Part shown: in pieces, positions 6,285 to 31,122 of the stretch | Layout of the letters: each line of letters opens with the position of its first letter | Numbering within the stretch: position 1 is the first letter of the stretch | From: Azolla caroliniana | Taxonomy: Eukaryota; Plantae; Polypodiophyta | Assembly (NCBI GenBank): GCA_043228905.1 | Contig: JBHGNT010000003.1 | Location: 18,910,001-18,974,000, forward strand | Direction of reading: 5' to 3' | Length of the DNA stretch: 64,000 nt | Made by a program: the position numbers and the translations under genes | Notes under the pieces: model-generated | The model's database searches: none | Seen by the model: the letters and a program-made list of their open reading frames with translations, nothing else | Told to the model about the DNA's origin: nothing

Positions 6285-7169
6285 TTTCTTCTTTCCACAA
6301 AAACACTCACAAGAGATTGCTGTGTTAGAAAACCTAAGGTAGCCTCTTAGAGCTTTAGAGTTTAGTTTACTAGGGTTAGGAAATCGGGTAGCTTTTAAGG
6401 TTTATGGTTTAATTTTAAGGGTTTCAGATTTTAGGACATTGGATTTTAATTTCTGGAATTTAATGTTTAACACGTAAGGTACGGTTTAGGGTTTGGGGCT
6501 GAGAATTTGAATTAGGATTAGGGATTAGGAATCGCCGTTTCAATAGTATATAGAATTAAAGAACCGCCAGGGTTCTGCAGAAAATCCACCGAATTTCCAC
6601 TGGGAGGATAAAAGCCTTTCCAGATGAGTGAATTGTGGCAATAAATGATATAGGTTTTGTGGAGGAAAGAAGGTTCGGTGATTTTCTGAGTGTTTCCCCA
6701 ACTCTCCTTGTAATCAGGTAAAGAAGCTTCCTGGATTCTCTGTTTCTCTTACTGTAATGAGGAGTTATTATAGCCAGTTCTCTGAGAGTTGACCTAATTC
6801 TTCCTTTCATGAAGGTAAAGAAAGACCTTTGGGTGCATCTGAAGTTTGAACTTTGCCCAATTCCGTCTTCTTCTTCTTTCCTTTTAATCGTTTTCTTCTT
6901 CTTCTTCTTCTTCTGAGCTATAGAAGGGTGTATAGATTTGCAGCATTTGCTGTTGCTTTTAACAGACACCATAGCTTCCTTTTTTGGGCTTCAACTTCTT
7001 CTTTTGCTCTGAATTTCCTCTAATTTTCTAACCATAATCTATCTACATATATGTATACAGTATACATATGTAACCACATCTTCACTTGTCTTAGAGAAGA
7101 CTCAATGCTCTCAAAAACCTCTTCATGATCTATATCTCCATCATTTGACACACCAGGAGATCATCCGAA

Positions 7170-11297: not shown

Positions 11298-11592
11298 CGT
11301 CGTGAAGATTTTCGGCAACGGTGTGAAAATTGTGTGCAACGAACAAAATCGAGAATGTGCAATGTGCATGTGTGAAAGGGGTGAAGGCCACACACATATG
11401 CTAGCATGTTGTAAATAGGAGTGAAATGAGAATCGTAAAAGGAAAGCTAGATGTAAAGTTAAACATGTGCACGTGTGATGTGCGCTCAATTGTAAATATA
11501 AAAATAAGACTAAAGACTAGTAACATTTAAGTGCATACATAAGGATGGAATCAAGGCTTGAACCTTGCACCTCCAAGATAGGAGACCAATCG
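11298..11592 (+). mobile_element. LTR fragment (U3 start) of the TGTCGTGAAG family
   Basis: CGTCGTGAAGATTTTCGGCAACGGTGTGAAAATTG is the reverse complement of the LTR end at 28990-29025; 11500-11590 matches 28325-28410 inverted. Confidence 0.7.
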
Positions 11593-12518
11593 TTTTTTGA
11601 TAAACGATTGGTGCATGTAATGCAATGGTCCCCGGTAGTGGATTATCATGCTTTGTTAAAACAAGAATGCCCTATTTGCATAATAGTGGATTGTAAGCAC
11701 ACTTTTTTATGGCCACTTTCATTAGAGTTGATGAGTCAAATGGGTAAAGTGTTGATATCTCCACATGCAAATGTTACAAATAAGTGCAAATTTTGTGTGT
11801 TATGGGATACAAGTTGTAAGAGGCCAGGATGGGTGCGTATGAACACACCTGGTATGAAAAGACTTTCTTTTAAATTGAAGTAGGAGACATTTGCAGGTCA
11901 TTGTTTTGGATGTGGTGAATGGGGTCACTTTATGGTGGAAGGCCATCGTCATTGTCCTTCAACTATAGAGGTTCCTAATGAAGGGAATGGTAAGGAAGGA
12001 GTTGGGATAGATGTTGGTGTGTCAGATATTATGGTTGTTATGGATGAAGAAACATCATCTAGAGCAGGTTATAAAGAGGTCTCACTTCAAGCTTTGGGCC
12101 CTAAGGATAAGGGAACTCAATCTATGGATATGGAAAAACAAAGTTGAGTGGTTATAGAGATTTAAGGGGAAAAAATTGTTGGATAGAGCTAATAGTGATG
12201 TTGTTGTTGACAAAGATTGGCATCAGGTTAAGGGCAAGTCGAAGGGGAAATCAATGAATATGCAACGTAATAGTTTAACCACTACTCGTGAGACTACTTG
12301 GCAAGGTAATTCAAAATGTTCATTGGCAACGACAATTTAGGGATAAGGGATTACCCCTTCATGTTCAATTTGATTTAGTGGGACGGGTTGTAAATTCATT
12401 GAATTCTCGAGGTTTTCGTTAAGCGGGAGGACCTAAACAAAAGATTTTGATAGACAACCCCAAGGATGTGGTGCATGAAAATCCATATGCATCATTGGAA
12501 CATGCTTTGACTAGTTTT
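11593..12518 (+). pseudogene. LINE ORF1 remnant (DUF4283-like region plus zinc knuckle)
   Basis: FFDKRLVHVMQWSPVVD...; past a stop, CFGCGEWGHF (CCH knuckle); acidic/basic tail ending ...HENPYASLE. Confidence 0.65.
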
Positions 12519-12609
12519 TGTTAGGAATAGTACTGAAACAGAGATAAATTAGTACTAAGAGATGCTGATTAGTACTAAGAAGAAAAGAGGGTGCAGAACA
12601 GTCGAGAAA

Positions 12610-12687
<78 letters not shown>

Positions 12688-12978
12688 TGATCATAACAAT
12701 ATATTATGTGAAAGAATATACAAGAATAGCTAGGAGGCTTAAGACTGGTGTTGAACCGATTTTGTTCGAAATAATGCCTTGTGCCTCCTTTTATAGTGTT
12801 CTCAAGAGTACTCCTGAAGTTTCTAGAATGTTCTAGAGAAATCTGGAATATACATCAATTTTCTATAGTAAAACTTAAATGAAAATAATGTCTTTAATAT
12901 TACAATACATAGCCTAATGGTAAAGCCTCGACCCATGTAACATAAGGTCATGGGTTCAAGTCTTGCCATATCATGACA
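12519..12978 (-). repeat. 3' LTR of chromovirus
   Basis: TGTTAGG...TCATGACA; the first ~280 bp match 29295-29520; TATA (CTATAAAAGG on -) at ~12790. Confidence 0.9.
12910..12966 (+). promoter_or_regulatory. tRNA-like Pol III A/B-box module in chromovirus LTR U3
   Basis: A box TAGCCTAATGG 12910-12920 and B box GGTTCAAGTC 12953-12962 at tRNA spacing. Confidence 0.6.
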
Positions 12979-15900
12979 CTTTCCCCTTTTTAAAACGACG
13001 AGTGGCACGAGTCGTTTTGGATTGAGAACCCGGTTTTTCTGCATTTTGACAATGGAAGTCTTCAAGAAGAGCACAAGCATTGGTCACATTCTCTATCGGT
13101 TCCCAAGTACGCTCGTTGGGACTATATCCTAGCCAATTGACTAAATAGTAGAGCTTGTTGCGGGCAATCTTGGAATCGAGGCTGGCAGCAACCTTGTACT
13201 CAGGTCCATCTTCAAGTTCGATCGGGGGTGCAGATTGTTTAATACAACCTGGGATGGTGCTATCCTGATAGGGTTTGAGGAGAGAACTATGAAACACCGA
13301 TGTATCCGAAGTTGCAGAGGTAGAGCGAGATGAAAAGCGACATCATTAATTTTTCTGATAATACGGAAAGAACCTAATTGCCGATAATCTAACTTCTCGC
13401 ATGGGCGAGTAGTCTTGATGTGTCGTCGTAGTAGCCATACCCGATTGCCAATGTTAAAACTGGATGCAAGCCGATGACGATCTGCGTAAACCTTGTGTGT
13501 TTGTTGAGCGTGCTTTAGATGAATAGATAAATCCACTTGTATCTTGCGTAACCGCTCCAAACGATCCTCTACGCAAGGATTAGTGGGTAACTCTGGAGTT
13601 TCAAATACACACCACCAGGGGTGACAACCCGTATAAGCATAAAATGGTGTAACCTTTGTCGATGAGTGGACAGAGTTATTATATGCAAATTCGGCGAAGT
13701 GGAGAATATCCGCCCAGTCATCTTGATGATAGCTTAGGAAACACCGAAGATACTGCTCCAACGTTTGATTTGTTCATTCTGCTTGGCTGTTTATTTGCAG
13801 GTGGTAGCCAGAGGAGAGGTTACAAGTGACCTTAAGCATTTTAAAGAGGTGCTTCCAGAACTTCAAGACGAACTAGGGTCCACGATCGTTGATTATACCA
13901 TCGGGAAGGCCATGATGCCAACATACTTCACGCATGACAGTTTCGACGGTTTCCTCACTGGAGATTTCCTTAGTACATGGCAGGAAATGGGTCATCTTCG
14001 TATATCGATCTACTATTATTAAGATCGCATCGAATCCCTTAGAGACCGGAAGATCTTTGATGAAATATAGAGCAATGGATTGGCACGACTTGCTTGGAAT
14101 TGGTAATGGTTCTAATAAACCATATGGATGATGCCTTGACGTTTTTGCTCTGAAACATGTATCACAAGTCCGAACAAAATCTTCGACAAATTGTCGCATA
14201 TGGGGCCACCAGAATGATCATTGTACTAAATCTAATGTTTTGGTACTACCAAAATGCCCAGCTCTATATGTGTCATGATAGTTTTGGACTACTCGAAGGC
14301 GACAAGAACCATTAGGAACATACAACAGTTTCTTAACGAATAGTAATCCATCATGACATTCGAATTGTCGATAATTTGTACCTGGTTGTTGCGACTGTGA
14401 ACAAGATGCTCGAGAGGGATCAATTTGTGCTAGAATGGCTTGGGCAAAGCATTTGTCTTCAAGTCCTCACATATGGTATCGATAACGTGGGAATCTAATG
14501 GTATACCGAAGACCCGCGTTGCTTGCAGTCGTGTCGGTCCCAGGATTACTTGCTTTTGGTTATCGAAAGTTGGCTCGCCCGGACGCGGTGCTATATACGT
14601 GCGCCATGATAATGTGTTTGCCTTCCCTTGTTGCTTTCCCGGACGATATGTAATTTTGAAGTCGAAACAATTGAGGAATTGGGCCCACCGAGCTTGACGT
14701 CGATTTAACACACGAGCATTCTGAAAGTAGGCAAGGTTTTTGTGATCACTGAATACGATGACTTGATGAGAAGATCCCTCTAGATAATGCCTCCATTGCG
14801 TAAAAGAGTCCACTATTGCTAATAGCTCCTTATCATGAAGATTCCTTTCGAGGAAATGACATAGCCCAGAAATTCTACCAAGTTGCACTTGAAACTACAT
14901 TTTTCCAACTTTGCATAAAGACCATGTTCTTGAAGTCATTTTAGTACTAACAGTACATGGGAATAATGCTCTTCTTGGGTCTTCGAATAAACCAGTAGAT
15001 CATCCAAATAGATGATGAAACAAACATCCAAGAGATCTTGGAATATATCATTTGCCATGTGCTCGAAGACTGCTGGCGCATTAGTGAGGCCGAATGGCAT
15101 GACCGTATACTCGAAGTGCCCATATCTGGTGTGAAACATGATCTTCCATTCATCTCCTGGTCGGATCCGTGCGAGGTTATATGCTCCTCGTAAGTCGATG
15201 TTTGTGAAGAACCTTGCACCATTGATCCGTTCTAAAAGACTTGAGATAAGGGGAAGTGTGTACCTATTCTTGATGGTGACCTTTTTCAAGCCACGGTAAT
15301 CTACGACGAGTTGAAGTGATCCATCCTTTTTCTTGACGAAGAAAATGGGTGTGCCAGCTGGAGATTTTGAATGTTGAATGAAACCATTTGCCAAATTCTC
15401 CTCTATATAGGCTCGAAGGACTTCTAGCTCGGTTGGTGACAAATTGTAGATCGGTCCCCATGGTGGCTCTTTTCCCAGTTGTAAATCGATGGGGCAATCA
15501 TCCGATCGATGGTGAGGAAGCATATTAGCTCGTACTTTATCGAACACATCAGCATAATGAGGATACTTCTCTGGAAGTTGAACAGTGGACTCCTCTTTAT
15601 TGATACTGGAGGGGTTTACTGATATTGCGAAGAGAAACATTTCTTCCTTGTGTCCTTCCTCACGCAACTGATGTAGCGAAATGGTTGCAATATTATGAGT
15701 AGATCCTCGAGTTTGTTGACACCGTATATATGTTGTTCTCCAATCTATGGTTGGGTTATGTAATTAGAACCATGGTAATCCCAAAACAATGGGATGTTCT
15801 GGGATACTAATTATATTAAATGATACTACACACGCTAAGTTATCTAGGACAATATTAACAGGTTCTAACTCTTCTATAATATTCCTAGAAGCAATGGGAC

Positions 15901-17071
15901 GACCATCAATGACTACTATAGAGGCTGGACATGGGAGTTTCTTTAGGGATATCTGATGAGCTTGGGCAAAATTCCTATCCATGAAGCAAGAGTTGGCTCT
16001 GGAATCTAAGAGTGCTAAGACATGTACTGGAGGAGTACTTTTAGTACTAACCATTACTTGAGCTAAGAACACATTGCTGACTTGCGTAGAGGAAATGGAA
16101 CCACTAATGGGTTGCACAAATCTAGGGCTGTCCAACCAAACGGCTCCTATTCTGGCTAGACTTAATCGGATAACTCTTCTTCTAGTTGACTAAGGATTTC
16201 AAATTTGTTTGAAAGGCTTGGGCTATTAGAACTATCACACACACCTAGGGAAATAGACTCAGGTTTAGTACTATTAGTATTTGCGATTATTTGATTTACT
16301 TGCCTTTTTGGCCAATGGGGACAGTTCATTGCAATATGCCCTGGTCCACCACAATAAACACATAATCGATTTGCCCTGCGTCATTGCTTTTCTTCTTTCG
16401 ATTTCCATTGGAGTCGGAGTATTTGTTGGAGACGTATTGAATGACCTCCTTGGGAAAGGCTTTGCTATGATCGAAGCATAGGTGGGCTCCGATCTTGTCC
16501 TTGGCATTTGGAACTGACATTCTGAACGTTGTTTGAAGAGGTAGTTATCGCATCGCATCGCACCGCACGACTGATTGCTTCTGTCAATGACTTTGGCTCC
16601 TCGGGGAAAGTTAAGAGTAAATCTTTAACATCATTACGTAGGCCAAAATGAAATTGCTCCATTAATGCCTGGCCATCCTAGGTAATATCGGTGGCAAGAA
16701 GACGGAAATTTGCAGCATAAGCTGAGGCCGGCCGCTCACCTTGGTGCAATCTCCGGATTTCGTTGATTGCTGTTCTAACACTGTCGATATCTCAAAAATA
16801 GGCTTTAAGCTCAGTAATAAACTCTTTGAAATTATTTAACAAGGGGGAATTTTTTTCTAGCAGGGGGGCGAACCATGCCAAAGTCGTGCCACTAAGTAGA
16901 GTGCCTACTAGTCCCACTCGTGATGCATCGGTGGGATATCGAGAAGGATGCATTTGAATGACTAATCGTTCCTGATTAACGAATCCATCGAATTTGATGG
17001 GAAGGCCGATCTTGGGTTCTTTATGAATCCCTTGCATCGCTACTATGGTTGCTTCGAGTTGTTGTACACGT
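12971..17071 (-). pseudogene. Chromovirus gag-pol remnant with frameshifts and stops
   Basis: gag (LLSGTTLAWFAPLLE), protease (ALLDSRANSCF), RT (PIFFVKKKDGSL, YLDD), RNase H ([13 protein letters not shown]), integrase (LIIVDRYTKMTHF), chromodomain (YLVNWLGYSPNERTWEP). Confidence 0.92.
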
Positions 17072-17676
17072 TGTCGTGAAAAATCCATCACTAAATGCGG
17101 ATCATGAGGCGGAACCGCTGGGGTTCCGAACCAGAAGGATTTGAAGTTTGCACTAGTTTTAGCGAGAAAGGATTTAAGATATATTGAGAGAGAGAGATTG
17201 AGATTAAGATTCCAATTTTGAAACAGATTGAGAAAGATTAAAATGGAGAGAGAGATTAAGATTGAACTCTTGACTTTAGACTTTCGATTTGAAGAGTAGG
17301 ATATATCATCAATTGGATAACGAATTTTCTTACTTTTAATTTCTTGATTAATATATATCTCCCCTTTGATCTTTTTCAACCACTCTTTTATAGACACTGT
17401 CGTGAAAATACGACGAGGACATGTGAACTTGAGGCAGGACCCCGGGGCCTTAGACCAGAGGACATCACATTCGTGCTTTTATATTTTTAACAATTAACGA
17501 AAATAAGAAATTTAATCATTTTCATTAACAAAGGAAAAGAAATTACAATATGTCCCAAGATTGGGATTCAGAAGTTTTAGGTTTACTAAGATTAATAGAA
17601 AAGAAAAATTAGGGGTTTTGAGAGATATGGCTTCCGTAGGGAAAATTAGGGTTTTTGGCTTCCGTAAGGAAATTAG

Positions 17677-20600
17677 TGTTAAGAAAACGTGAAGAAGGCA
17701 CTCGGGCTCTTCTTATGTGCGCGGCGGATCGTGGTGTGCTAGATCGTTTAGTGCTCAAACACAGAAGGAGAAAGGAAAAGGGGACTTACCTCTGTAGTAG
17801 CAAAATGGTTTTCTTCTATTACATGTAGAGCTCAACTTGCTCTCGTCAGTCTTCTGGTCTCTCACTGTCTCTCAGAGTTCTCTACTCACTATTCTCTGTT
17901 TTTTCTTACTGCTTACTTCCTATTCACTCTCACTTACTTTTACCTAAGTCATAAGTTATTACACATGCAGCTAATTAGCTGTCAGTCGCTAAATAGCTGT
18001 CAGTAGCTAATTAGCTGTCAGTAGCTAATTAGCTGTTTCTCCTTTATGTTCACAAGTAGCTAAATAACTACTATAGCTTATTTCCCAATAAGCATCGCAT
18101 ACCATGTTGAGCTTGCTTCTCAACACTCCCCCTCAAGCTCAACTTATCCTTTCTTGGGGTTATCTACAACTTCTTTTTCATGATGCTTTTCAACCATCAT
18201 ATCAATGTCTACAACTCCCATCATGTTCCGAAACTGTGTATGCTTTTCCACACTCAATCCCTTTGTGAGAATATCAACAACCTGCTGATTTGTATTCACA
18301 TACACCAGATCAACTTCTCCTTCAATCACTTTTTCTCTAACAAAGTGATAATGCACTTCAATGTGCTTTGTTCTTGCATGGAACACAGGGTTCTTTGCAA
18401 GTTGAATGCTGCTGATGTTGTCACACCAGATTGTGACAGTACCGTCTATATACTCTCCCAAATCAGCAAGCAATCTTCTAATCCATACCTCTTCACAAGT
18501 GGCTATGGCAGCTCCTCTGTACTCAGCTTCAGTACTAGACAATGCAACAGTAGCCTGTTTCTTGCTACTCCATGAAATACCTGCACTTCCCAATGTAAAG
18601 ATATATCCACTTGTGGATCTCCTGTCTGTTTGGCTTCCAGCCCAATCAACATCTGTATATCCTTCCAGATTTATGTCCAAATCAGCCCTGTAAAACAATC
18701 CATAGTTCTGAGTAGCTTTTACATACCTCAGAATTCTTCTAATGCAGTCCAAATGTGGCTTTGTTGGCTGTTGCATAAACTGGCTGACTAATCCAACAAC
18801 ATAGCTCAAATCAGGTCTTGTTATAGTCAAATAAATAAGGCTGCCCACCATAGACCTGTACATGTTTACATCTTCTATCTTGGCTCCCAAATCAGCCCTC
18901 AACTTGCAGTTTTTATCAAGTGGTACAGCAATAGGTTTGCATCCAAGCATACCATACTTTTTCAACATAGTTGTTGCATACTGTTTTTGCAACATACATA
19001 TACCACTTTCAGATCTGATGATTTCAATACCAAGAAAATATCTCAGATCTCCCAAATCTTTCATATGAAACTGCATTTCCAGATTTTTTTTCAACTTTCT
19101 TATTTCATCCACGGAATCTCCTCCAATAATCAAATCATCTACATAAATCAGAATAATAACAATGCAATCATTTTCACTTTTTACATACAAAGAAGGATCA
19201 GCTTTTGACATTTTGAAACCAAGATTTTTCAGAGAATCTGAAAGTTCTCTGTGCCATGCTCTTGGTGCCTGTTTCAGTCCATAGAGAGCTTTTTTCAACT
19301 TACATACATAATCAGGTTGTTTCTTATCTTCAAAACCTGGTGGTTGACTCATATACACTTCTTCTTCCAAGTTACCATGTAAAAAAGCATTTTTTACATC
19401 CATGTGATGCAAAATCCATTTTTTGGCTGCTCCTACAGCAAGTAGTGTTCTCAAGGTTGCCATCTTTGCAACCGGTGCAAAAGTCTCATCATAATCAATC
19501 CCTTGCATCTGAGCATATCCTTTTGCAACCAATCTTGCTTCATGTCTACTTACATTCCCATTGGAGTCATGCTTTGTCTTGTAGACCCATTTGCAGCCTA
19601 CCACATTTTTCTCTTTTGGTAACTTCACTAAATCCCACGTTTTGTTCTCAGCCAATGCATCAATCTCTTCTTGCATTGCATCCATCCATTTCTTCTCAGA
19701 TTTTGCTTCTTCAAAGCTGTTTGGGTCAGGGATCTGTACCACCTTAGACATATATGCATAGTGCATAGCCATATATGTATCATACCCAAATCTTTCCACA
19801 GTCTTTTTCTCTCTATCTGATCTTCTCAGTTTCTGATTTGCATTCTTTATTGCCTTTTCCATACCAGGGATTTTCATTTCCTGTATTCCAAGGAAATCAT
19901 CGAAAGACATATCTGAATCTTCATCTTCCATGTTTTTTGATAGGTCATCCGGGATTTCATACTCTGGCATTTTCTGTTTTCCTTTTTTGTCATCAGATTT
20001 TTTCTGTCCAGTTTTTCCACTCCATGAATTTGAATCAGATTTACCATCTGAGCTTTTTGATGGTCCAGAACATTCTGTTGATGTTGGACTTTGATGTCCA
20101 ACCTTGTCTCCATCTCTGTGACAGTCTTCTACATTTTCTGATCTGTCTTTGTCTTCATTTTGACAGTCTTCATCAGTCTCTAGATTCTGTTTTGGGCTGT
20201 ACCAACTAGCCAACTCATCAAATATCACATCTCGACTTGTCACAATCTTTTTAGTCACAGGGTTATAACATTTGTACCCTTTTTGTTCTTCTGAATATCC
20301 AACAAAGATACATTTTTCTGCTTTTGGATCCAACTTACTTCTTACTTCTGCAGGCACATGTACATATGCAAGGCATCCAAACACTTTCAAGTGTTGTAAG
20401 CTAGGCTTCCTGCCATAAAAACACTCTTCAGGAGTTGCCTCATGTACTCCTGATGTAATACATCTATTTAAAATGTAATTTGCTGTATTTACAGCTTCTG
20501 CCCAATAGTATAATGGCATGTTCTTCTCAGTCATCATTGCCCTTGCTATGTTCACCAAAGTTCTGTTTTTCCTCTCAGCAACTCCATTTTGCTGTGGAGT

Positions 20601-23096
20601 ATATCGGCATGTGAACTGTCTTCTTATTCCCTGATTACACAAAAAATCAGAAAATTCATTGGAGAAATACTCTCCTCCTCCATCAGATCTCAAACATTTT
20701 ATCCTAGTACCAGCCTGCTTTTCTACCATGCATTTAAACTTACGAAAATAGTCAAATACTTCACTTTTCTCCTTCATGAAGTACACCCATGTCTTCCGTG
20801 AACAATCATCAATAAATGTAACATAAAATTTGCATCCACCAATAGATGCATTCTTTGTTGGTCCCCATACATCTGTATGTACCAAATCCAACAGATTTTT
20901 GCTTACATGTCTCTCATGAGGGAATGGCAACCTGTTTTGCTTACCATATTGACATGCTTCACATACTTTTCCCATTTCACACTTTTTCAAGTTTGGCAGT
21001 CCAGCCACTGCATCTTTTCTCAACATATTCTTTAATGTTTGCATACTTATATGGCCAATCCTTTTATGCCACATTTCCACATCTAAGATTACACTCGTTC
21101 CATTTGCAAACATGGCTGAAATCTGTTTGGGCATTTCTACATCCAAGATAAACATTCTTCCTTGTCTCTTCCCTTTTGCAATGAGCTTCCCATTCTTTTC
21201 TATATAGCATCCACTTGGCTTAAACTTTACTTGCATACCTTGCTCTACTATCTGTCCAACAGAAATCAGATTCTTAGCAAGATTTGGAACATGCATCACA
21301 TCCAACATATACTTGGTTTTTCCTCTTTCTTCCCACAATGGGATATCTCCAACATGTTTTATTTGGTGAGTTGTGTCATCACCTGTTTGTACATAACCAG
21401 GAACCTCTGGTTCTCTTAAACTCTCAAACCAATTTGCATGTCCAGTCATATGGTTAGATGCCCCCGAGTCTACATACCACGTAAACTCTTCATTACATTT
21501 CTGTGAGCTTTCAGCCACTGCTGCTATCTCATGTTGCACTACAAAAACACCTTCCTTTTCACAATCTTCACTAGTAGAGGCATAGTTACTCTGTTGTCCT
21601 TTTCCTCTTTTCTCATCATTTTGTTTCTTGTAACATTCAGCCTGTGTATGGCCTGGTTTACCACAATACCAGCAGCCATCATCATTTACATAAGTTTGCT
21701 TACCTCTACCTCGGTTGCTCCCCCTGCCTCTGTTGTTGTTTCCTCCTCTATGAGCTTGTTGTCCTCTTCCTTGAAAGCCATTATTATTGGTTCTTCCTGA
21801 GCCAAATCTTCCATGGCCTCTTCCTCGGCCTCTTCCGGCATTATTATAGAGGGCTTGCCCCTCGTTCTCTGAGTTTCCTTTATTTGCATCATCCATCTGA
21901 TTCCTTTCCTCTACCACAAGCATTGAGACCAGATCTGAAAAACTTGGGATACTATCCCTTGTGAGCATAGAAGTTTTAAAACTCTTGTATTGAGGTCCTA
22001 AGCCTCTTAAGCATATTTCCACTTTGTCATCATCTTCTATCTTCACATTGATAGAAGCAAGTGATTCACATATACTCTTGATTTTTAGGGCATACTCATT
22101 TATTGACATCTTACCTTTTTCTAAGGTATTTAGCTCAGTCTTCAACTGTAGCTTTCTAGCTTTTGTGTTTACTGCAAACAGTTTTACCAAACTGTCCCAA
22201 GCTTCTTTTGGGAGCATAGCATCCTGTATGTGCCCAAGCATCGAATCTGAGATGCTAAGTGAGAGCCAATGCATTACCTTCCTTGCCCCTTGATTCCAAT
22301 CTTTGAATGCTTTAATCTGTGCTGCTGTGGCATTTTCTTCTGGGATCTCCGGAGCCTCTTCTAGGTCTCCTTCAATGTAATCCCAGTATCCTTTCCCCAT
22401 TAGGAAATTTGTCATTCTAAATTTCCACGCCGGGAAATTGTTTTTATCTAGTTTCTTTGTAACTATTTGGCCCGCATTCTCTGCAGCCATTATCTCTTCC
22501 AAACTAGGTTTTCTGTTACAATTACTTCAACAAGTAACTTTTTGATTCAGATAAGCAAACAGAGAAATACCTTTCTCAGATCTATGCACTTTTGTACTCT
22601 TCTTTATGAGCAACTCTGCTCTGATACCATGTTAAGAAAACGTGAAGAAGGCACTCGGGCTCTTCTTATGTGCGCGGCGGATCGTGGGGTGCTAGATCGT
22701 TTAGTGCTCAAACACAGAAGGAGAAAGGAAAAGGGGACTTACCTCTGTAGTAGCAAAATGGTTTTCTTCTATTACATGTAGAGCTCAACTTGCTCTCGTC
22801 AGTCTTCTGGTCTCTCACTCTCTCTCAGAGTTCTCTACTCACTATTCTCTGTTTTTTCTTACTGCTTACTTCCTATTCACTCTCACTTACTTTTACCTAA
22901 GTCATAAGTTATTACACATGCAGCTAATTAGCTGCCAGTAGCTAATTAGCTGTCAGTCGCTAAATAGCTGTCAGTAGCTAATTAGCTGTCAGTAGCTAAT
23001 TAGCTGTTTCTCCTTTATGTTCACAAGTAGCTAAATAACTACTATAGCTTATTTCCCAATAAGCATCGCATACCATGTTGAGCTTGCTTCTCAACA
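17677..23096 (-). mobile_element. Intact Ty1/Copia LTR retrotransposon (Copia-1)
   Basis: LTRs 17677-18125 and 22630-23096, near identical; TSD ATTAG; PBS TGGTATCAGAGC (tRNA-iMet) at 22618-22629; PPT GAGGGGGAG; uninterrupted gag-pol. Confidence 0.97.
18144..22502 (-). CDS. Copia gag-pol polyprotein, 1452 aa
   Basis: Zn knuckle CWYCGKPGHTQAEC, protease VDSGASNHM, integrase (HTDVWGP, RSDGGGEY), RT (YVDD), RNase H (TEAEY, CDNISSI). Confidence 0.97.
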   Translation of the reverse strand: MEEIMAAENAGQIVTKKLDKNNFPAWKFRMTNFLMGKGYWDYIEGDLEEAPEIPEENATAAQIKAFKDWNQGARKVMHWLSLSISDSMLGHIQDAMLPKEAWDSLVKLFAVNTKARKLQLKTELNTLEKGKMSINEYALKIKSICESLASINVKIEDDDKVEICLRGLGPQYKSFKTSMLTRDSIPSFSDLVSMLVVEERNQMDDANKGNSENEGQALYNNAGRGRGRGHGRFGSGRTNNNGFQGRGQQAHRGGNNNRGRGSNRGRGKQTYVNDDGCWYCGKPGHTQAECYKKQNDEKRGKGQQSNYASTSEDCEKEGVFVVQHEIAAVAESSQKCNEEFTWYVDSGASNHMTGHANWFESLREPEVPGYVQTGDDTTHQIKHVGDIPLWEERGKTKYMLDVMHVPNLAKNLISVGQIVEQGMQVKFKPSGCYIEKNGKLIAKGKRQGRMFILDVEMPKQISAMFANGTSVILDVEMWHKRIGHISMQTLKNMLRKDAVAGLPNLKKCEMGKVCEACQYGKQNRLPFPHERHVSKNLLDLVHTDVWGPTKNASIGGCKFYVTFIDDCSRKTWVYFMKEKSEVFDYFRKFKCMVEKQAGTRIKCLRSDGGGEYFSNEFSDFLCNQGIRRQFTCRYTPQQNGVAERKNRTLVNIARAMMTEKNMPLYYWAEAVNTANYILNRCITSGVHEATPEECFYGRKPSLQHLKVFGCLAYVHVPAEVRSKLDPKAEKCIFVGYSEEQKGYKCYNPVTKKIVTSRDVIFDELASWYSPKQNLETDEDCQNEDKDRSENVEDCHRDGDKVGHQSPTSTECSGPSKSSDGKSDSNSWSGKTGQKKSDDKKGKQKMPEYEIPDDLSKNMEDEDSDMSFDDFLGIQEMKIPGMEKAIKNANQKLRRSDREKKTVERFGYDTYMAMHYAYMSKVVQIPDPNSFEEAKSEKKWMDAMQEEIDALAENKTWDLVKLPKEKNVVGCKWVYKTKHDSNGNVSRHEARLVAKGYAQMQGIDYDETFAPVAKMATLRTLLAVGAAKKWILHHMDVKNAFLHGNLEEEVYMSQPPGFEDKKQPDYVCKLKKALYGLKQAPRAWHRELSDSLKNLGFKMSKADPSLYVKSENDCIVIILIYVDDLIIGGDSVDEIRKLKKNLEMQFHMKDLGDLRYFLGIEIIRSESGICMLQKQYATTMLKKYGMLGCKPIAVPLDKNCKLRADLGAKIEDVNMYRSMVGSLIYLTITRPDLSYVVGLVSQFMQQPTKPHLDCIRRILRYVKATQNYGLFYRADLDINLEGYTDVDWAGSQTDRRSTSGYIFTLGSAGISWSSKKQATVALSSTEAEYRGAAIATCEEVWIRRLLADLGEYIDGTVTIWCDNISSIQLAKNPVFHARTKHIEVHYHFVREKVIEGEVDLVYVNTNQQVVDILTKGLSVEKHTQFRNMMGVVDIDMMVEKHHEKEVVDNPKKG

Positions 23097-23656
23097 ATTA
23101 GGGTTTATGAGAGATCGGCTTCCGTATGGAAAATTAGGGTTTATGGCTTCCGTAAGGAAATTTAGGGTTTTTGGCTTCCGTAAGGAAATTTAGAGTTTAT
23201 GGATTCTGTAAGGAAATTAGGGTTTATGAGAGTTATGATTTCGATAAGATGAAGGAGCTAAGAAGGAAAAGAAAATTAATGGAGAGAGAGTATGAGTATA
23301 GGAAAAAAATGGAATATATATGGAGTTCCCCGTTGATCATATGCATGTCCACTTTTTGTTGCATGGCCTCTACTTTTAGTTGCATGTGACCGTCCACATG
23401 ACCTTTTACTTTAGTTTTCTTCACTTCACTTTAATTAGCCACATGATCCTATCATCCGTTCGGTTTGCGTCCAGCCTCGTCCGGTCGCCAATTGTCGTCG
23501 CCTCGCCAGCTCCGCCATCAGTTCTGGTTTGCTTACCGGTCGGTTTTCGGTTTTGCTTACCGGCTGATTTCGGTTTTGCTTACCGGCTGGTTTCCAGTTT
23601 TGCTTACTGGCCGGTTTCCGGTTTTGCTTCAGTCTTTGCATTTCCATGACCAATTG

Positions 23657-25633
23657 TCATGGCTCTCTTTGCTCCCCTCTAGAGCATAATGCTTCACTCC
23701 TTATGCATGTGCCACCTTCATCTCGACCATCTCCTTGGTCATTTAACTTTCTTTTATCATCCTTTCTTGTTTCATGCATGCCTTTCAAAGGCCTTATCAA
23801 AGTACTATTGTTGAGTACTCTTAGTGGTCCATTCTTTAACAACATGCTCTCTTGTAGGTCCTTAAGTGACCACATTGTATGCTTCCCATTTTGTCCACTT
23901 TTGTGGTATACTCTTGTGTTGGAGTGGACCATGACTTCTACGCTAGTATTATCCTTGTTAGATTTTGTGATCACATATTTCGGATCCGCTTGGCCCGCTT
24001 GGCCCACGTCCTTGCTTTTTGAGGTTTGTTTGGTCTCGTTGTCGCACACATTAGCTTTTGTCCTTGCTTCCTCGCTGCCATCGTCCTTCTCTTGGGTCTT
24101 ACATTGGTTAATGCCCAAGTCTCTCAAACGAGTGTGGAGGAATTTGGTAGTTTGGCATTGCCTTTGTCGTGCTACCCTTAGCCGCATCCACCTTATGGTT
24201 GTCCTCATTGGTTTTGACCTTTGTTCCTTCGCCGCCGCCTTCCATCTCTTGGGTCTTACATCGGTTAATGCCCAAGTCTCAAGAACTTTTGTGGGGAAAG
24301 TCTCTTCATGATCATCGTCTACCCTCTTCGGCTTGACGTCTCCTTCTTCTTCGCATGTGTTAGTTTTGGCCTTCACTTCCTCGCCGCCACCTTCCGTCTC
24401 TTGGGTCTCACGTTTGCTTTCCGACGCATCTGCCCAAGTCTCTAGAACAAGTGTAGAGAAAGTCTCGACACGGCCATCGGTCATTGACTCGTCCATAGCC
24501 ATCTCTGACTCAATGTCATTTTTCGTGGCTATCTCTTTAGACTCATAGGCCTCGTACCCATTGATCCTCTTGATCAAGCAAGCCTCGATTATTCTTCTCT
24601 CTTCTTTGTATGTGTTAGTTTTGGCCTTCACTTCCTCGCCGCCATCTTCCGTCTCTTGGGTCTCACGTTGCCTTTTCAACACAACTACCCAAGTCTATGG
24701 AATAAGTGTGGAGAAAGTCTCGACACGGCCATCCGCCATTGACTCGTCCTCAGCCACCTTTGACTCGATGTCAATTTTCATGGCTATCTCCGCAATCAAA
24801 TTGGCCTCACACTTTTTATCTCCCTTGATCATGCAAGCTTTGCTCATGCTTGCACCTTCATCACTTGATGTTTCAGACACGATGCGTGTTCTGAGACATT
24901 TGTCCTTGCTTGAAGTTACATTCGCCACCCTCAATTCATTGGTTTCTTTCTTCGTCATTCTTTCTGTGCAAGATGAGAAGGTCTCTTGTTCCACACCTTC
25001 TTCCATGGTTATATCGTGGTACCGAACTTGGGCCTTTGTATCAACCGTAACATTAATCCGCATTTGTTGGGAGGCCTCTTCTTCCTCGCTCATCATTTGC
25101 TTCAGTTTTTGCTCCTTTTGAAGCTTCTCTTCAGCCTCAACTTGCGCCTTTAAGTTCTCGAATGCCTCTTCCATCAAGACTTCTATGTCGAGTATTGTTG
25201 AACCTTCCCTCTTCGAGTTTTCTTCTTTAGGTGGTAGTTTGTAGTTGCTTCCCGTCCTCCTTTCACCATCCGTCATGGGTTGTGTTGTTGCCGATCAGAA
25301 TCTTGTCTTCCTCTTATCGTGAAGTCGACATACTCTTTCCACTTTCGTCCAATCTTCTGTGAGGCCATTTGCACCATCATCATCCTCAAGTCGGATTCCA
25401 ATGGCATTCCTTTCCTTCCGGTCTATCGATTTCACAAACATTAGGATTTTTTCCACGCCCACCAATCTTTGATCCCGCTTCGAGAGTTGTGCAAAGCGAC
25501 ACTCAAACTCAACGAAAGCATGCATGGCACTTTGGTGGATCTTTAATGATGATACCCATTGGTCGAACTCGTATAGTTTGCATCTCTTCGGTTCTTTGTA
25601 ACTATATGCCTCCATGAGATATCCTCCTGCCAC
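23657..25633 (-). pseudogene. Gag-like plus low-complexity ORF remnants of element B
   Basis: Collinear broken ORFs (FECRFAQLSKRDQ..LMFVKSID..LTEDWTKVERVC, then repeated ETQETEDGGEEVKAKTN blocks) starting just downstream of the PBS. Confidence 0.55.
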
Positions 25634-26549
25634 CTCGTTTCACGTCGAGTTCACCAAAGATGTCGCCAAAATACGACGAGGACACGCGAACTTGAGGCAG
25701 GACCCCGGGGCCTTCGACTAGAGGACATCACATTCGTGCTTTTATATTTTTTAACAATTAACGGAAATAAGAAATTTAATAATTTTCATTAACAAAGTAA
25801 AAGAAATTACAATATGTCCCAAGATTGGGATTACAAAAGTTTTATCTTAAGGAGATTACTAGAATAATAGATTAGAAGATACTAAGATATGGATTCAATA
25901 GAATTTTAGGGTTTTTGGCTTTGATAAGAGATTATGGTTTATGAGTTCAATAGCTTCCGTAGGGAAATTTAGGGTTTATGAGTTCAATAGCTTCCGTAGG
26001 GAAATTTAGGGTTTATGGCTTCCATAAGAAAATTAGGGTTTTTGAGTGTTATGGCTTCCGTAGGGAAGATTAGGGTTTTTGAGTGTTATGGCTTCCGTAG
26101 GGCATTTAGGGTTTATGAGAGTTATGGGTTCCCTAAGATAAGGGAGCTGAGAAGGAAAAGAAAAAAAATAATGGAGAGAGAATCTGAGTATAGGAAAAAA
26201 ATGGAATATATATGGAGTTCCCCGTTGATCATATGCATGTCCACTTTTTGTTGCATGGCCTCTACTTTTAGTTGCATCCATTTTTAGTTGCATGACTTTT
26301 TCTTTTAGTTGCATGATCTTTCCACCTTTTCTTTGCATGCCTTCCAAATTTTTGCATGCGTTCACATGGCCTTTACTTTACTTTAATTAACCACATGATC
26401 TTGTTATCCGTTCATTTTGCGTCCAGCCTCGTCCGGTCGCCGATTGCCGCCGCCTCACCGGCTACGCCGCCGGTTCTGGTTTCCTTACCGGCCGGTTTCC
26501 GGTTTTGCTTACAGGCTGATTTCGGTTTTGCTTACCGACCGGTTTCCGG

Positions 26550-27629
26550 TGTCGTGAAGTACGAAAGCTTCACATTAAAAGTCTACAATAAGATAAATAC
26601 GTAACTAAAATAAAATAAAAGTTGATAATATTTTATACATAAAGATAATATTAACAACACACTATGATAATATTATACATTATATGTAGAGGTAAATAAA
26701 TAAATAAATATGTTACATTACATGGACGAGAGAGGACTTGAGCCAATAAACCCCACCTTATGACACTCAAACCTTACCATTTAGCCTATACTAATAATTT
26801 ACAAGAAATCATATGCATTGTTTTATTTCAAGTAATATTTTATAGTCTAAACCATGTAATATACTACAAGCACACCATATAGCATATCACATGGGCAAAA
26901 GAGGACTTGAACCAACAAACTCAACCTTATGGCATTCAAATCTTACCATTTAACCTATACTTGTGATATGAATCAAACATATGTGTTGTAATATTGTATG
27001 GTTTAAACCAGGAAATGTATTACATGTGCACCATATAGCACACATGCAAGAGCCTCTCTGCATGTACGCCATGTGGCCCACATGTAGAACCATCTCTTCC
27101 CTATAAAAGGAGAAGGGAGTATGGTCACAAGGGGGATCAAAGGAATCAATCAATATCAAAAGAACTATATTATATATATATCAAATAGGGTTATGTTGTA
27201 AGTGATATCACAATAGAGAAAGAAGGAAAGGAAGTTCAACATAAAGGTGGAGCTCTAACTTGGCGATCATGGTGGTCAACTCTCAACAAGAGAGAGGCGG
27301 TTCGAGCCTTATCTTCATCAAAATATTGAAGTGAAGATTGTTGTGGCCTACTATAAAGAAAGAGAAGAGCAATTATCTTGTGAGACCAAGTTCGAAGGAT
27401 CAACGACGCTTACAATCACTTTTGTAACTCTTTCATCAAATAATTATAAATCTCTTTTATTCCTTCAAATATCGTTCAATATCCTTTCTTGTCATATCTT
27501 GTTGATCTCTATTTACTCTATCTCTACTCTTTCGTCTCTTCCGTCCATAATCTCAGTGATTCCTTCCTCACTTTCACGATACCTTTTGTCTACGCAACGC
27601 AACGCTTCTAGGCAAGCCACGCCACGACA
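26550..27629 (+). mobile_element. Solo LTR 'Y' (1080 bp) inserted in element B 5' LTR
   Basis: TGTCGTG...CACGACA termini, perfect CCGG duplication, TATA CTATAAAAGG at ~27102; it interrupts the GGTTTTGCTTACC repeat tract. Confidence 0.85.
26732..26958 (-). promoter_or_regulatory. Two tRNA-like A/B-box modules in solo LTR Y
   Basis: On -: TAGG(C/T)TAAATGGTAAG...CATAAGG...GG(C/T)TCAAGTCC, at 26733-26788 and 26902-26957. Confidence 0.55.
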
Positions 27630-28301
27630 CCGGTTTTGCTTACCAACTGGTTTCGGTTTTTGCTTACCGGCCGGTTCTGGTTTTGCTAACCGGCAAGTTC
27701 CGATTTTGCTTACCAGTCGGGTTCCAGTAGGTTTTGCTTACCGACCGGTTTCCAATTTTGCTTACCAACCGGTTTCCAATTTTGCTTATCGGCCGGTTTC
27801 TGGTTTTGCCTACCGATCAATTTCTGGTTTTGCTTATGGGCCGGTTTTTTATTTTTGGGAACTTAGCCACCATCATCCATCAAGACAAAGTGGCCAAAGT
27901 GTTCTTAGCACAAATGAAAAATGAGGGATCTCAAGGTGCTTATATAGCCAAAGCCTTAAGTTTCCTATCTATGTGGGATAAATCATAGTTCTATTTTCCA
28001 TATCTTCTCAAACATCCATCTTTCTATAACATGCCATTAAGCTAATATAAAGTACTTATTTTATTATTATTATTTTTTACATAGTGTGAGAAGATTCACA
28101 CCACAACGCCCCCATACATATGATGCATGTGAGGGTACAAGACATGCATACAATGCATGGAATGCATATGATGCATGTTTGCCATTTGGCGCTCATGCAT
28201 TACATGTGATGCATGATAACCATGTCACTCAATTAAGCTCTAATATGAGAATTTACATGTAAAACTATAATGATAGAAAAAAAAATTCTAAGGAAATGAC
28301 T

Positions 28302-28360
28302 TAGCTTAGTGGTAAGTCTACTGTCTCCTATCTTGGAGGTGCAAGGTTCAAACCTTGCTT
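28302..28360 (+). promoter_or_regulatory. tRNA-like A/B-box module in solo LTR X
   Basis: TAGCTTAGTGG 28302-28312; CTCC-TATCTT-GGAG stem; T-arm GCAAGG-TTCAAA-CCTTGC. Confidence 0.6.
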
Positions 28361-29294
28361 GCGTCCCTTTGTATACAAACTTTTACTAGGTTTTTAGTCT
28401 AGATATTTTGTTTGTTTCACACCGAAATCGTCACAATCAACCTATCCGATCGATCCGTCTATCCAGTCCATCCGGTCCGCATCTGACCTCGTGATCCGGT
28501 CTATCTGATCCGGTTCTAGTGATAGTGTCGGTCCCGGTTTTGCGTCGTCCACCATTTCGGTTCCGGCTCCGTCGTCGTCTGTTTGGTTTCGGTTTCAGTT
28601 TCGGTTTCGGTTCCGTTGTCGGTTTTGTGGTCGTCCGATCACCCAAAACCATTACAAGTAGTTAAGCCATAGTTTAGCCCAAGAACATTTTCTGCTCCAC
28701 TTATAGACAAAAAGTAATAAGTTTTGGCTCTGCTTATATAATGTGGGATCCTGTTTTGTCCTATCTATGTGGGATATCTCACAGTTTTGTTTTTCTCTTC
28801 TTCTTCTCAAACTTCCTCAAACTTCACACTCACATAACTTGACACTAAGTTGTCCATTTCACATGTAGTAAAATGCATTCGGAAGCTCTTGAAGACATAC
28901 ATCCTTTCATACCAAGATATAAATAATATCTTCATTATTATTGTTTCATATTGTGTGTGAAGAACCACACTCGATTTTGTACATTCCATGCAATTTTCAC
29001 ACCGTTGCCGAAAATCTTCACGACAGCGTACCGCTAGTTCCCCATGTTGTTGTTGCGTCTGCTGCTTTTCTAAGGATATTTGTTGAAGATCCCCCAACAA
29101 TCGTTGATTTTCTTATTCAAAAGCAAGGAACTTCTCTTTCAAACATTGTAGCTCTGAGAAAACGGATTGATATTCTTGAGCGCTAACAGTGGCCATAGGA
29201 TGAGAGGAAAGAGGAATAAGATATTAGTATGAAGGGAGAGAAACGTAAGAAGATAAAAGGAAGAGGAGGAAAGAGATGCAAAATCGGTTCAAAC

Positions 29295-29520
29295 TATCAG
29301 GAATAGTACTGAAACAGAGATAAATTAGTACTAAGAGATGCATATTAGTACTAAGAAGAAAAGAGGGTGCAAAATAGTCGAGAAAAGGACAGAGAGAGAG
29401 AATGATGATAATAATGATATATTATGTGAAAGAATGTACAAGAATAGCGAGGAGGCTTAAGACTGGTGTTGAACCATTTTAGTTCGAAATAATGCCTTGT
29501 GCCTCCTTTTATAGTGTTCT
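29295..29520 (-). repeat. Partial 5' LTR of chromovirus
   Basis: Direct repeat of 12519-12802 with a shorter GA tract; ends at TTTTATAGTGTTCT where the Copia LTR begins. Confidence 0.85.
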
Positions 29521-29892: not shown

Positions 29893-31122
29893 CACACACA
29901 CAACTCATATCTATTCCGCTGCATAGAATCCATCTCTTGATTCTTTACATGGTATCAGAGCGACTTGGTAGCTCGATCTAGCCCATCCGTGTGCGGTGTG
30001 TCCTACGTCGACAACCAAGAACCAGCTCATCGTTATCGTAGCCTCGCTACATAGCTCGCATTCGAAGAGAGAAGAAGCAGAAGAAGAAGAATCGACATAA
30101 TGAATACTCAAATGGGGAGCGCTCTCTCTACCGAGAAGTTGGATTGAAACAACTTTGCATCTTGGGAGTACAAGATGCACCAATACCTTGTCGGACAAGG
30201 CTATTGGAGCTACATCAAAGGTGCGCACGAAGACCAACCCGTCGAAACGGCTCCCGGATACGCGACATGGGAGCAAGCCGCAAGTCACGTGATGTATTGC
30301 TTGGCGACATGTGTTCAGGATCACATGCTTGGCTACATTCGCGAAGCCAAGACGCCGAAGGAGGCATGGGAATATCTACGAAAGATTTTCGCGGCGAACA
30401 CAACCGCAAGAAGGCTTCAACTCCGCCAAGAGTTGAACAACACTCAACAAAGGGACATGTCCATCACGACATACACCTTGAAGATCAAGGAGCTTTGCGA
30501 CTCACTCGGCTCGATAAGTGTAAATATCGATGATGATAAGATGGTGCAAATCTGCCTCGGTGGCATTGCACCACGGTTCGGCGCGATGCGAACCGCTGTT
30601 CTAGCAAGGGAGAAATCTCCCTCCTTCTTCAAGCTCCAATCAATGCTATTGGTCGAAGAAAACCACGTGCGCACAAGGAGCAATGAGTCGGAAGGCCACA
30701 TGCTCTACACGCACTCGAACAGAGGAAGAGGACGCGGACGAGCGAGAGGCCGATTCGGCCAAGGACAAGGAGGACGAGGTTCGACCTACGACAACAACTT
30801 CCAATTTCGGCCGCAAAACGAAAGCCAACGAGGAACCTTCGCAAGAAGGGGGAGCTTCCACGCCGGCCCGAGCCATCAAAACGCAACCAAATGCGGATAT
30901 TGCGGAAAGCTCAGCCACCACGAAGAAGAGTGTCGAAAGAAGATGCACGAATCGGCTTCCACAAGACGAGAACTCACGAATTACACGCACAATTCCGACT
31001 ACGAAGAGTATAGCGGAATGTACAGGCACAACTCTGACTACGAAGATTGTGGCGGAATGTATGCACACAACTCCAACCGTGGTGGAATGTTCATGATGAA
31101 ACATAGAGCAAACTCTACATAA
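29521..31122 (+). mobile_element. 3'-truncated Copia (5' LTR 29521-29949, PBS, gag only)
   Basis: TGTTG...TTACA then TGGTATCAGAGC; gag with an early stop, ORF 30175-31122 (ARRLQLRQELNN, CGYCGKLSHHEEEC) similar to the Copia-1 gag; no pol. Confidence 0.85.

Follow-up and report, generated by a model that had tools for sequence, protein, structure and literature searches.

Antisense A-box/B-box modules in the U3 of chromovirus and Phygy-like LTRs of Azolla caroliniana as candidate TFIIIC/TFIIIB sites

Long terminal repeats (LTRs) of three retrotransposon families in a 64,000-nt stretch of the Azolla caroliniana genome (the window) carry an RNA polymerase III (Pol III)-type promoter module within U3. 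Each intact module contains an 11-nt A box, a gap of 32 nt, and a B box; there are four intact units and one half unit, all in U3 and all antisense to the LTR. One host is a self-priming, Tcn1-like chromovirus, and the others (X and Y) are two Phygy-like LTR families. Sequence comparison supports selection on the boxes in the chromovirus lineage, with a weaker case for the X and Y families, where modules are missing from part of the sisters. The module is tentatively viewed, with a little less than even confidence, as a candidate TFIIIC/TFIIIB site at the outer edge of the LTR, where it may serve as a barrier or as an aid to the promoter. An initial annotation had proposed antisense A/B modules in the U3 of three different LTRs; all are present where it placed them, at a frequency above that of shuffled sequence:

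12910..12963, plus strand: module T; boxes A and B 32 nt apart, with 0+1 mismatches; 15 nt inside the start of the chromovirus U3
28302..28355, plus strand: module X; boxes A and B 32 nt apart, with 0+1 mismatches; antisense, in U3
26903..26957, minus strand: module Y1; boxes A and B 32 nt apart; antisense, in U3
26734..26788, minus strand: module Y2; boxes A and B 32 nt apart, with 1+1 mismatches; antisense, in U3

The chance test used A- and B-box consensus sequences, gaps of 25-60, both strands of the window, and 12 block-wise dinucleotide shuffles. Pairs with at most one mismatch occupy 3 rows in the window versus a shuffle mean of 0.08 (maximum 1); with at most two mismatches there are 7 rows versus 0.58 (maximum 2). 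These 7 rows correspond to five places, the four modules and one inside copia gag. The copia LTRs in the window contain no module at this threshold of two mismatches. Candidates at 30711-30761 (within copia gag), 38049-38120 (gap of 50, B box with 3 mismatches), and 62550/62580 (an intron-like region) were dismissed as chance. As first described, the module in each of the three families is positioned upstream of the LTR's TATA, from which it faces away. Orientation is set in the chromovirus by its open reading frames (ORFs), polypurine tract (PPT), and self-priming primer binding site (PBS); in X by the PBS and ORFs of element Z, described below; and in Y by the TATA and end motifs only.

The host of module T is represented by these features:

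12519..12978, minus strand: chromovirus 3' LTR, 460 bp, TG..CA, defined by its ends and the adjacent PPT
12789..12795, minus strand: Pol II TATA box of this LTR, ~114 bp inward of the A box
12750..12764, minus strand: start of R, the putative self-primer, complementary to the PBS at 29280-29292
12971..17478, minus strand: broken gag-PR-RT-RH-(IN)-chromodomain region, from Pfam matches and ORFs
29280..29520, minus strand: self-priming PBS and R/U5 remnant of the 5' LTR, 91-95% identical to 12523-12802

Pfam matches within the coding region are to Chromo, SH3_Tf2-1, RT_RNaseH, RVT_1, aspartyl protease, and DUF4939, the C-terminal chromodomain matching PF00385 with an E value of 4.8e-11. In read data, the LTR end at 12978 is marked by loose ends of low agreement. 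A copia LTR inserted at 29521 has cost the 5' LTR its U3, together with the module, and no further match is present in the window. The outer end of this LTR, beside which the 5-bp TSD (target site duplication) of a Tcn1 element would be read, is thus missing from the window. Three DNA runs cover the B half of module T at the same depth as the rest of U3, and ~95% of that depth has a G at position 12958, which is within the B-box consensus. Eight records from run X17, presumed to be RNA, were set aside, as contigs do not reveal strand.

Relatives of the chromovirus were fetched by integrase similarity alone. Three of them (L001, L002, and L006) and the window element together make up a 100/99 clade, and in the tree, which included no named Tcn1 reference, a clade of plant type sits among Tf1/sushi-like rows from fungi and vertebrates. 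The window element, L001, L002, and L003 have the R-start/PBS self-priming layout in common; a script found no such PBS in L007 or L008. The TATA at 12789..12795 aligns with that of L001. Viral contigs searched with the window chromodomain ORF gave no relative, and other queries gave distant elements only. All three clade relatives contain the module, 15-35 nt inside the LTR start. In the sister clade one locus has it, weakly, and more distant loci have none near U3. The modules of L001, L002, L005, and L006 are antisense, as are all those of the window. When a weight matrix trained on the four window modules only was scanned across 1.02 million positions in 83 loci, the modules of L001, L002, and L006 ranked 1st, 3rd, and 4th; a further 51 loci gave no match above 15.

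The initial annotation had suggested comparing the boxes with their surroundings, and in the chromovirus the boxes are more conserved than module interior, flanks, and synonymous sites. Between pairs of the window element, L001, and L002, the A box, the sequence AGGTC, and the B box are together identical at 23, 20, and 17 of 27 positions (85, 74, and 63%), while the module interior is 42, 38, and 42% identical, the flanks 30-40%, and the fourfold sites of integrase 39, 35, and 42% versus 27-31% at saturation; these values rest on three independent lineages, and L001 and L002 are high-coverage metagenome contigs that may be collapsed family assemblies. The 32-nt spacing is the same in L001, L002, and each of the window's four intact modules, although indels abound in the U3 spacer around it. 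AGGTC, at tRNA positions 44-48, is invariant in 4/4 chromovirus lineages. Conservation of the boxes above the neutral rate fits a selected site for Pol III factors in this lineage. The modules might instead be passive relics, functionless antisense insertions of a SINE2 or a tRNA pseudogene that successful master elements carry along, an explanation considered unlikely. A passive relic is expected to resemble the interior, and boxes at 63-85% identity against 38-42% for the interior, in elements whose synonymous sites are near saturation, argue against passivity. Passive carriage would also require that each lineage had received its own insertion, on the same strand and at the same position of 15-35 nt. 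Furthermore, the footprint of an inserted SINE is absent: no target site duplication (TSD), A-rich tail, or simple-repeat tail is visible at any module, the loose ends beside the modules are LTR-type sequence, and read depth over them (likeness of at least 80%) is even, with no SINE-like spike. These observations indicate that the module is integral to the LTR families. Passive carriage does gain from precedent, since insertion of SINEs into LTRs has been proposed as an origin of such sequences and "not a few" Repbase LTRs contain tRNA parts (PMC10886601). A SINE inside a Crypton is on record (PMC3522703).

The X and Y families lie in a nest of related elements:

25661..28438, minus strand: 5' LTR of element Z, which includes X as its U3 and has Y nested inside; right boundary approximate
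28436..29025, minus strand: LTR unit W, related to X, with a homologous TATA region (78%) and without a module; precedes X
11298..11593, plus strand: truncated LTR of the X/W family, with a W-like start and the B half of a module
26550..27629, plus strand: solo LTR Y, 1080 bp, TGTCGTG..CACGACA, inserted in the LTR of element Z; Phygy-like

X was at first taken for a solo LTR and proves to be the U3 of the 5' LTR of nested element Z, an LTR that ends at 25661. Its TATA is at 27940-27946, ~350 bp from module X, and its PBS is at ~25642-25658; contigs from the read data bridge 27753-27924 within it. A-box-like loose ends occur at module X in organisms B and C. The PBS of Z is led by TGG and presumably resembles plant tRNA-Trp. 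Z contains ORFs and no pol; the ORFs have no Pfam or Atlas match, and pairwise comparison gave nothing. Searches of viral and genome contigs with patterns for the LTR ends of the X/W family yielded 0 matches; evidence on X and Y from outside the window thus consists of depth data. The truncated LTR is 91% identical to the start of W over 55 bp and 81% identical to X over 90 bp. The relative of module X originally marked at 11547-11590 is real as to its B half (11554-11586, minus strand) and lacks an A half, which has been replaced at an inverted-repeat junction near 11585-11612.

Y is indeed a solo LTR with two antisense units on the minus strand. It is flanked on both sides by the 4-bp TSD CCGG, which is of the NCGN type, and loose ends in the read data mark its start at 26550. 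The flanks of X/W/Z, ACAC and GCGT, do not match as a TSD, so that the NCGN rule holds for Y only. Y1 and Y2 form a tandem duplication of ~170 bp with 74% identity, and module Y1 is ~144 bp from the TATA at 27102-27108. Joints in the read data that skip 189-197 nt indicate that some Y family members have a single unit, and in organism E, where ends of Y-related LTRs are abundant (depth ~15,000), the module bins are nearly empty (29-214). Modules are also absent from W and from L003, L007, and L008. The existence of such sister families indicates that the module is not essential and favors passive relics, as does the fact that comparison within X and Y spans no deep divergence. The word CATAAGGT, common to Y and the chromovirus, was considered as a sign of common origin; its registers differ, and it is thus no evidence for one.

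The modules had been called tRNA-like, a description that suits the boxes and their spacing and does not extend to the rest. ARAGORN finds 0 tRNA genes in the window and in 19 loci. An RF00005-type search at low threshold, proposed earlier, gave no tRNA match at E<=10 for any window module or for 10000-31000, nor did Rfam return a 5S match in that region at the same cutoff; the module of L002 reaches 15.8 bits with the Rfam tRNA model, whose gathering score is 29. Pairing in the acceptor (15/42 pairs, p 0.74), anticodon (15/30, p 0.14), and T (9/18, p 0.26) stems is not above shuffles. The anticodon-like position noted in Y is present insofar as CAT falls in the anticodon register of both units, but the stem around it pairs almost entirely by G-U. 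The first run of four Ts (T4) lies 2-113 nt downstream in 8/9 U3 units and is missing within 300 nt in L001, and no terminator shared among the modules was found. Stems that are not kept and a T4 of variable position point to a function at the level of DNA rather than RNA. The earlier suggestion of an antisense small-RNA source is weakened for the same reason, neither fold nor terminator position being conserved.

These features bear as well on the idea of an active antisense Pol III promoter by which the module holds the element in check, either through a transcript from the 3' LTR across the PPT into the integrase/chromodomain end or through tgm-like repression, in which an assembled Pol III complex silences the Pol II promoter next to it. 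Both boxes are kept and their conservation would serve this role equally, AT-rich DNA upstream is available for TFIIIB, and yeast provides tgm silencing as well as de-repression of LTRs on TFIIIC depletion (PMC4228148). However, no fold is conserved, the terminator position is not conserved either, so that the RNA would differ in every family, and a self-repressor acting in cis would presumably be harder to retain in a very abundant family. On balance such restraint appears improbable.

AGGTC lies outside the B-box consensus, and TFIIIC tolerates a range of A-B spacings; thus, a role in RNA or repeated recent captures would fit these two features equally well. Ty1 and Ty3 use extended or bipartite primer sites, which offer a model for a module that acts in genomic RNA: its copy in the 3' U3, antisense to tRNA, would base-pair with the D, variable, and T loops of host tRNAs as an aid to packaging, dimerization, or strand transfer. 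This would account for AGGTC being kept alongside the boxes. However, identity drops to background (0.28) at positions 49-51, which separate AGGTC from the B box, and a continuous complement to any one tRNA is therefore lacking; the chromovirus primes itself; and the X and Y modules lie 80-400 nt from the LTR start. A genomic-RNA role is thus quite unlikely. Least credible, and very improbable, is that the boxes serve as landing pads or decoys, attracting Pol III-targeting retroelements to a place in the LTR where they do no harm. Pol III complexes do target Ty (PMC4228148), but the window has no nested insertion at TFIIIB distance upstream of a module; copia entered the chromovirus 5' LTR at a position equivalent to one ~108 bp from the A box, and at 11593 the inserted DNA breaks into the module.

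The preferred explanation, a TFIIIC/TFIIIB landing site, would begin with a tRNA gene copy or SINE2 head inserted antisense into U3, an event that would have taken place a single time in the Tcn1-like clade and independently in the Phygy-like families, after which reverse transcription would copy the module into both LTRs. The repeated capture originally proposed is plausible between Tcn1 and Phygy-like LTRs; within the Tcn1 clade one old capture fits. TFIIIC would bind the A and B boxes, which may be kept as a DNA landing site, and TFIIIB could assemble on AT-rich DNA just inward of the A box, between module and TATA, keeping open a nucleosome-poor stretch that separates the Pol II promoter of the element from heterochromatin in the flank. 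Chromodomains direct integration to heterochromatin, as proposed for moss RLG1 (PMC7466625, PMC2864245), and tDNAs and TFIIIC sites are barriers in yeasts (PMC7990762, PMC4228148). Barrier function in yeast seems to require the full Pol III apparatus (PMC7990762), and tDNAs can also repress adjoining Pol II promoters (PMC4228148); both points count against a landing site. No TFIIIC barrier in plants was found in the portions of the barrier literature consulted. The broader proposal, that two deeply separate autonomous Ty3/gypsy lineages each built a predicted Pol III pre-initiation site into the LTR edge as a portable heterochromatin barrier, keeping the elements expressible and scattering many thousands of TFIIIC sites or insulators, is possible, though doubtful.

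Chromoviruses are thought to insert into heterochromatin and yet must be transcribed there, which poses a question of mechanism in non-seed plants. If the landing-site explanation is correct, a conserved, outward-facing predicted site for TFIIIC lying between flanking DNA and the Pol II promoter would offer a specific answer open to test, gene targeting being feasible in mosses; the range of Pol III boxes in LTRs would extend from sense, non-autonomous miniature retrotransposons with terminal repeats (TRIMs) to autonomous elements, and very abundant LTRs would rank as a major source of a plant genome's TFIIIC sites. Were the modules passive, they would merit a minor annotation note only. Similar cases may be on record, given Kojima's remark on other Repbase LTRs with tRNA parts (PMC10886601). 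A search of mostly non-subscription literature, outside Repbase, turned up no account of antisense Pol III boxes in autonomous LTRs of plants, mosses included.

Several known systems share individual features with these LTRs. The window chromovirus has the chromodomain and self-priming PBS of Tcn1 (PMC6317226, PMC2864245), and Y has the 4-bp NCGN TSD of Phygy, whose PBS mostly matches tRNA-Trp (PMC6317226). The difference is the Pol III boxes, which go unmentioned in the available portions of PMC6317226 and PMC2864245; "polymerase III" occurs 0 times in those of PMC2864245 and PMC7466625. Yeast tDNA/TFIIIC (ETC) barriers and mouse B2 SINE boundaries likewise set A/B boxes beside a Pol II promoter and exert a chromatin effect independent of any product (PMC7990762, PMC4228148, PMC8136502). 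Those are host loci or SINEs whose function has been tested, whereas the present modules are built into LTRs and known from their sequence. Cassandra, named initially as a precedent, is a plant LTR element with internal Pol III promoter boxes in each LTR (PMC7215508, PMC10886601), and to that extent the parallel stands. However, its boxes are of the 5S type (A/IE/C), and it is non-autonomous, with its own RNA made by Pol III (PMC7215508). Closer, by virtue of tRNA-type boxes, is Helenus (TRIMp3), known among plants from Selaginella only, which has tRNA-derived sequence in its LTRs with boxes A and B mainly conserved and no functional tRNA, and for which insertion of a SINE2 into an LTR, with several origins, has been proposed (PMC10886601). 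Helenus elements are non-autonomous TRIMs of 311-1263 bp, whereas the window has gag-pol-chromodomain remains, a Y LTR that alone measures 1080 bp, and the ORFs of Z. In Helenus-1_SMo and three ToGe families the tRNA part is in sense and transcribes the element; here it is antisense, the boxes lie in the U3 of LTRs with a TATA of their own, and the hosts include a chromovirus lineage that codes for proteins.

A plant transposon nest fills the window, with host genes on its flanks (lipase, dihydrolipoyl transferase-like and PPR). A search with an A/B-box consensus located the tRNA-type modules that the initial annotation had claimed in the chromovirus LTR and in the Phygy-like LTRs X and Y. A/B pairs with at most one mismatch (3 rows in the whole window) are far commoner than in 12 shuffles (0.08); with at most two mismatches there are 7 rows, representing 5 places, versus 0.58. 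In each intact module, 32 nt separate an 11-nt A box from an 11-nt B box.

Modules in the window
12910-12963, plus strand: intact module, chromovirus LTR
28302-28355, plus strand: intact module X
26903-26957, minus strand: intact module Y1
26734-26788, minus strand: intact module Y2
11554-11586, minus strand: half module

The Rfam tRNA model, suggested earlier as a check, called no tRNA gene at the window modules, nor did ARAGORN. An inverted repeat at 11585-11612 marks the junction where an X-family relic is cut within its own module.

The Tcn1-like chromovirus lies on the minus strand, and its gag, protease, RT, RNase H, SH3 and chromodomain are all broken. Its module is antisense in U3; counted from the start of U3, the B box ends 15 nt in, and ~114 bp separate the A box from the TATA. 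Only one copy of the module survives, because a copia LTR cuts the 5' LTR. The sequence that follows the 5' LTR and the start of R are complementary, which is the self-priming layout of Tf1/sushi/Tcn1 elements; a supplement row of PMC6317226 gives self-priming in 83% of Tcn1. In that paper, Neumann et al. record Tcn1 only from mosses and club mosses, and Phygy only from Physcomitrella. Judged by these element types, the host would likely be a moss; searching with the flanking lipase yielded no close named relative.

LTRs bearing on the modules
12519-12978, minus strand: chromovirus 3' LTR, PPT adjoining
29295-29520, minus strand: chromovirus 5' LTR remnant, interrupted by a copia LTR
28436-29025, minus strand: related LTR W, which precedes X; TATA region homologous, module absent

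Y had been described as a solo LTR and is one (26550-27629), with a flanking TSD, CCGG, that agrees with the 4-bp NCGN rule for Phygy in PMC6317226. Its two modules are parts of one 170-bp duplication, and contig joints skipping 189-197 nt reveal single-unit family members. The same description was mistaken for X: it forms the U3 in the 5' LTR of element Z (17398-28438), whose PBS adjoins 25661. Element Z lacks pol; neither of its two ORFs (23657-24694 and 24695-25294), which include a 255-bp internal repeat, matches Pfam, and the second has no Atlas match. The 3' LTR of Z is cut short near 23630 and contains a copia whose LTRs are 96% identical and which has a single long ORF (17677-23096). 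In the relic at 11298, a W-like start is joined to the module, and a contig from organism E, a source of compared reads (depth 1883), links 28370 to 28970; together these suggest that the W-start/module order is usual in the family. The W-X tandem has no matching TSD and may be a recombination product, comparable to tandem LTR structures listed in PMC11899658. Y (27060-27085) and the LTR of the chromovirus relative L002 (~4230-4250) share an identical 12-nt stretch immediately upstream of their TATAs, possibly a common transcription-factor site.

Read depth was compared in three DNA runs (organisms A, A and B) at 80% likeness. As summed word depth, not copy number, the chromovirus module's B half (1.54, 0.65 and 0.60 million) equals mid-U3 (1.77, 0.76 and 0.63 million). 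Depth falls at 12890-12929, where divergent contig ends (agreement 0.85-0.91) indicate that most copies hold a variant that is still A-box-like; among the variant rows listed, G at 12958, inside the B-box consensus, accounts for ~95% of depth. X module bins reach 79-89 thousand versus 125-130 thousand at the TATA region (run X1), and Y module bins 7-9 thousand versus ~17 thousand in adjacent bins; in organism E, Y module bins are almost empty and Y LTR ends abundant. The initial annotation had named SINE insertions with their own TSDs and tails as one refuting case. At the modules there is no depth spike, TSD or tail; thus, they are not recent independent SINE insertions.

Relatives were collected with an alignment of 16 integrase-chromodomain relatives, which matched 79 metagenome loci (from the best 80 of 582 confirmed, out of 3/64 collection parts) and 4 viral loci. 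A 43-row tree (36 loci from a chosen subset, 6 database proteins and the window element) groups the window element with L001, L002 and L006 in a 100/99 clade, and each of the four bears the antisense module, 15-35 nt in from the start of the LTR. Of the sister clade, L005 bears a weak module (score 11.2), and L003, L007 and L008 have none; over 8 rows, presence or absence is not significantly clustered on the tree (187/500 shuffles as low). Scored over 1.02 million positions with a matrix built from the four window modules, the top loci are L001 (29.9), L056 (28.5), L002 (23.9) and L006 (21.9), then L053 (20.5); none of 51 further loci exceeds 15. Since L006 belongs to the window element's own family, the independent lineages are the window, L001 and L002. 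In pairs among these, A box, AGGTC and B box are identical at 23/27, 20/27 and 17/27 positions, versus 30-40% in the flanks, so that the boxes are, as had been proposed for checking, better conserved than the surrounding chromovirus U3. The 24-nt interior is 38-42% identical, and integrase fourfold sites (55-67 per pair) 35-42%, where saturation would give 27-31%. Drift at the neutral rate is thus seen in the interior but not in the boxes, a pattern consistent with a single old capture maintained by selection. The module is judged to be real and under selection, at least in the chromovirus lineage. That it is a passive relic is unlikely overall, though less so in X and Y than in the chromovirus.

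The L001 and L002 sequences may represent collapsed assemblies. Both pol copies of L001 contain a second antisense A/B-box-like unit (1010-1063 and 6334-6386, minus strand; gap ~31; score 17.1 for the first copy) in the coding linker from protease to RT; this linker is shorter in the window element and has no such unit. L056, a distant chromovirus locus, has an intact antisense tRNA fold (3627-3699, minus strand; Rfam 55.9 bits) ~2.3 kb behind the integrase match, which by eye looks like the tRNA part of Helenus-1_SMo. Weaker box-like units lie behind integrase in L044, L052 and L059. Tf1/sushi-like integrases in 42 contigs of bacterial and archaeal genome records (L084-L125) are likely eukaryotic contamination.

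Outside the boxes, six modules pair no better than shuffled sequences (acceptor 15/42, anticodon 15/30, T 9/18); anticodon plus T pairing gives p 0.08. The chromovirus module (z -3.3) and X (z -3.5) fold strongly relative to mononucleotide shuffles, forming dissimilar hairpins, neither a cloverleaf; the other five modules do not fold strongly. Against the Rfam tRNA model the L002 module scores 15.8 bits, a sign of tRNA ancestry. Oligo-T runs lie at scattered distances from the modules. The invariant AGGTC and constant 32-nt spacing are unaccounted for by TFIIIC binding as generally understood. These features keep alive two other readings: the repeated capture first proposed, and pairing of the module, within element RNA, with a tRNA, which we consider improbable.

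In yeast, according to PMC7990762, A and B boxes are bound by TFIIIC, which sets TFIIIB on AT-rich DNA upstream, and tDNAs lack nucleosomes and function as barriers. Because the module faces outward, TFIIIC would take the LTR-edge position and TFIIIB would settle between TFIIIC and the TATA. Such a stable complex would separate host chromatin from the element's Pol II promoter; a putative TFIIIC/TFIIIB complex in this position is the reading we favour, though tentatively. The chromodomain of such elements is thought to target heterochromatin (parts of PMC7466625 and PMC2864245). Yeast Pol III complexes can also repress neighbouring Pol II promoters, stop read-through and draw Ty elements (PMC4228148, in part); a module serving as an antisense or tgm-like restraint is rather doubtful, and one serving as a landing pad very improbable.

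As described in PMC10886601 and PMC7215508, Cassandra LTRs carry 5S-type and Helenus LTRs tRNA-type Pol III boxes; both are non-autonomous TRIMs, and the boxes are thought or shown to drive the element's own transcription. In four LTRs of the PMC10886601 supplement, the Helenus tRNA part is sense, whereas the window modules are antisense. The window elements were considered as Helenus and ruled out, because they agree with it neither in being TRIMs nor in orientation; their modules likely arose in the same way as the Helenus tRNA parts. The literature searched, of limited coverage, yielded no description of antisense Pol III boxes in autonomous LTR elements. Pol III boxes in LTRs are thus already known, and the antisense, autonomous arrangement is apparently an undescribed variant.
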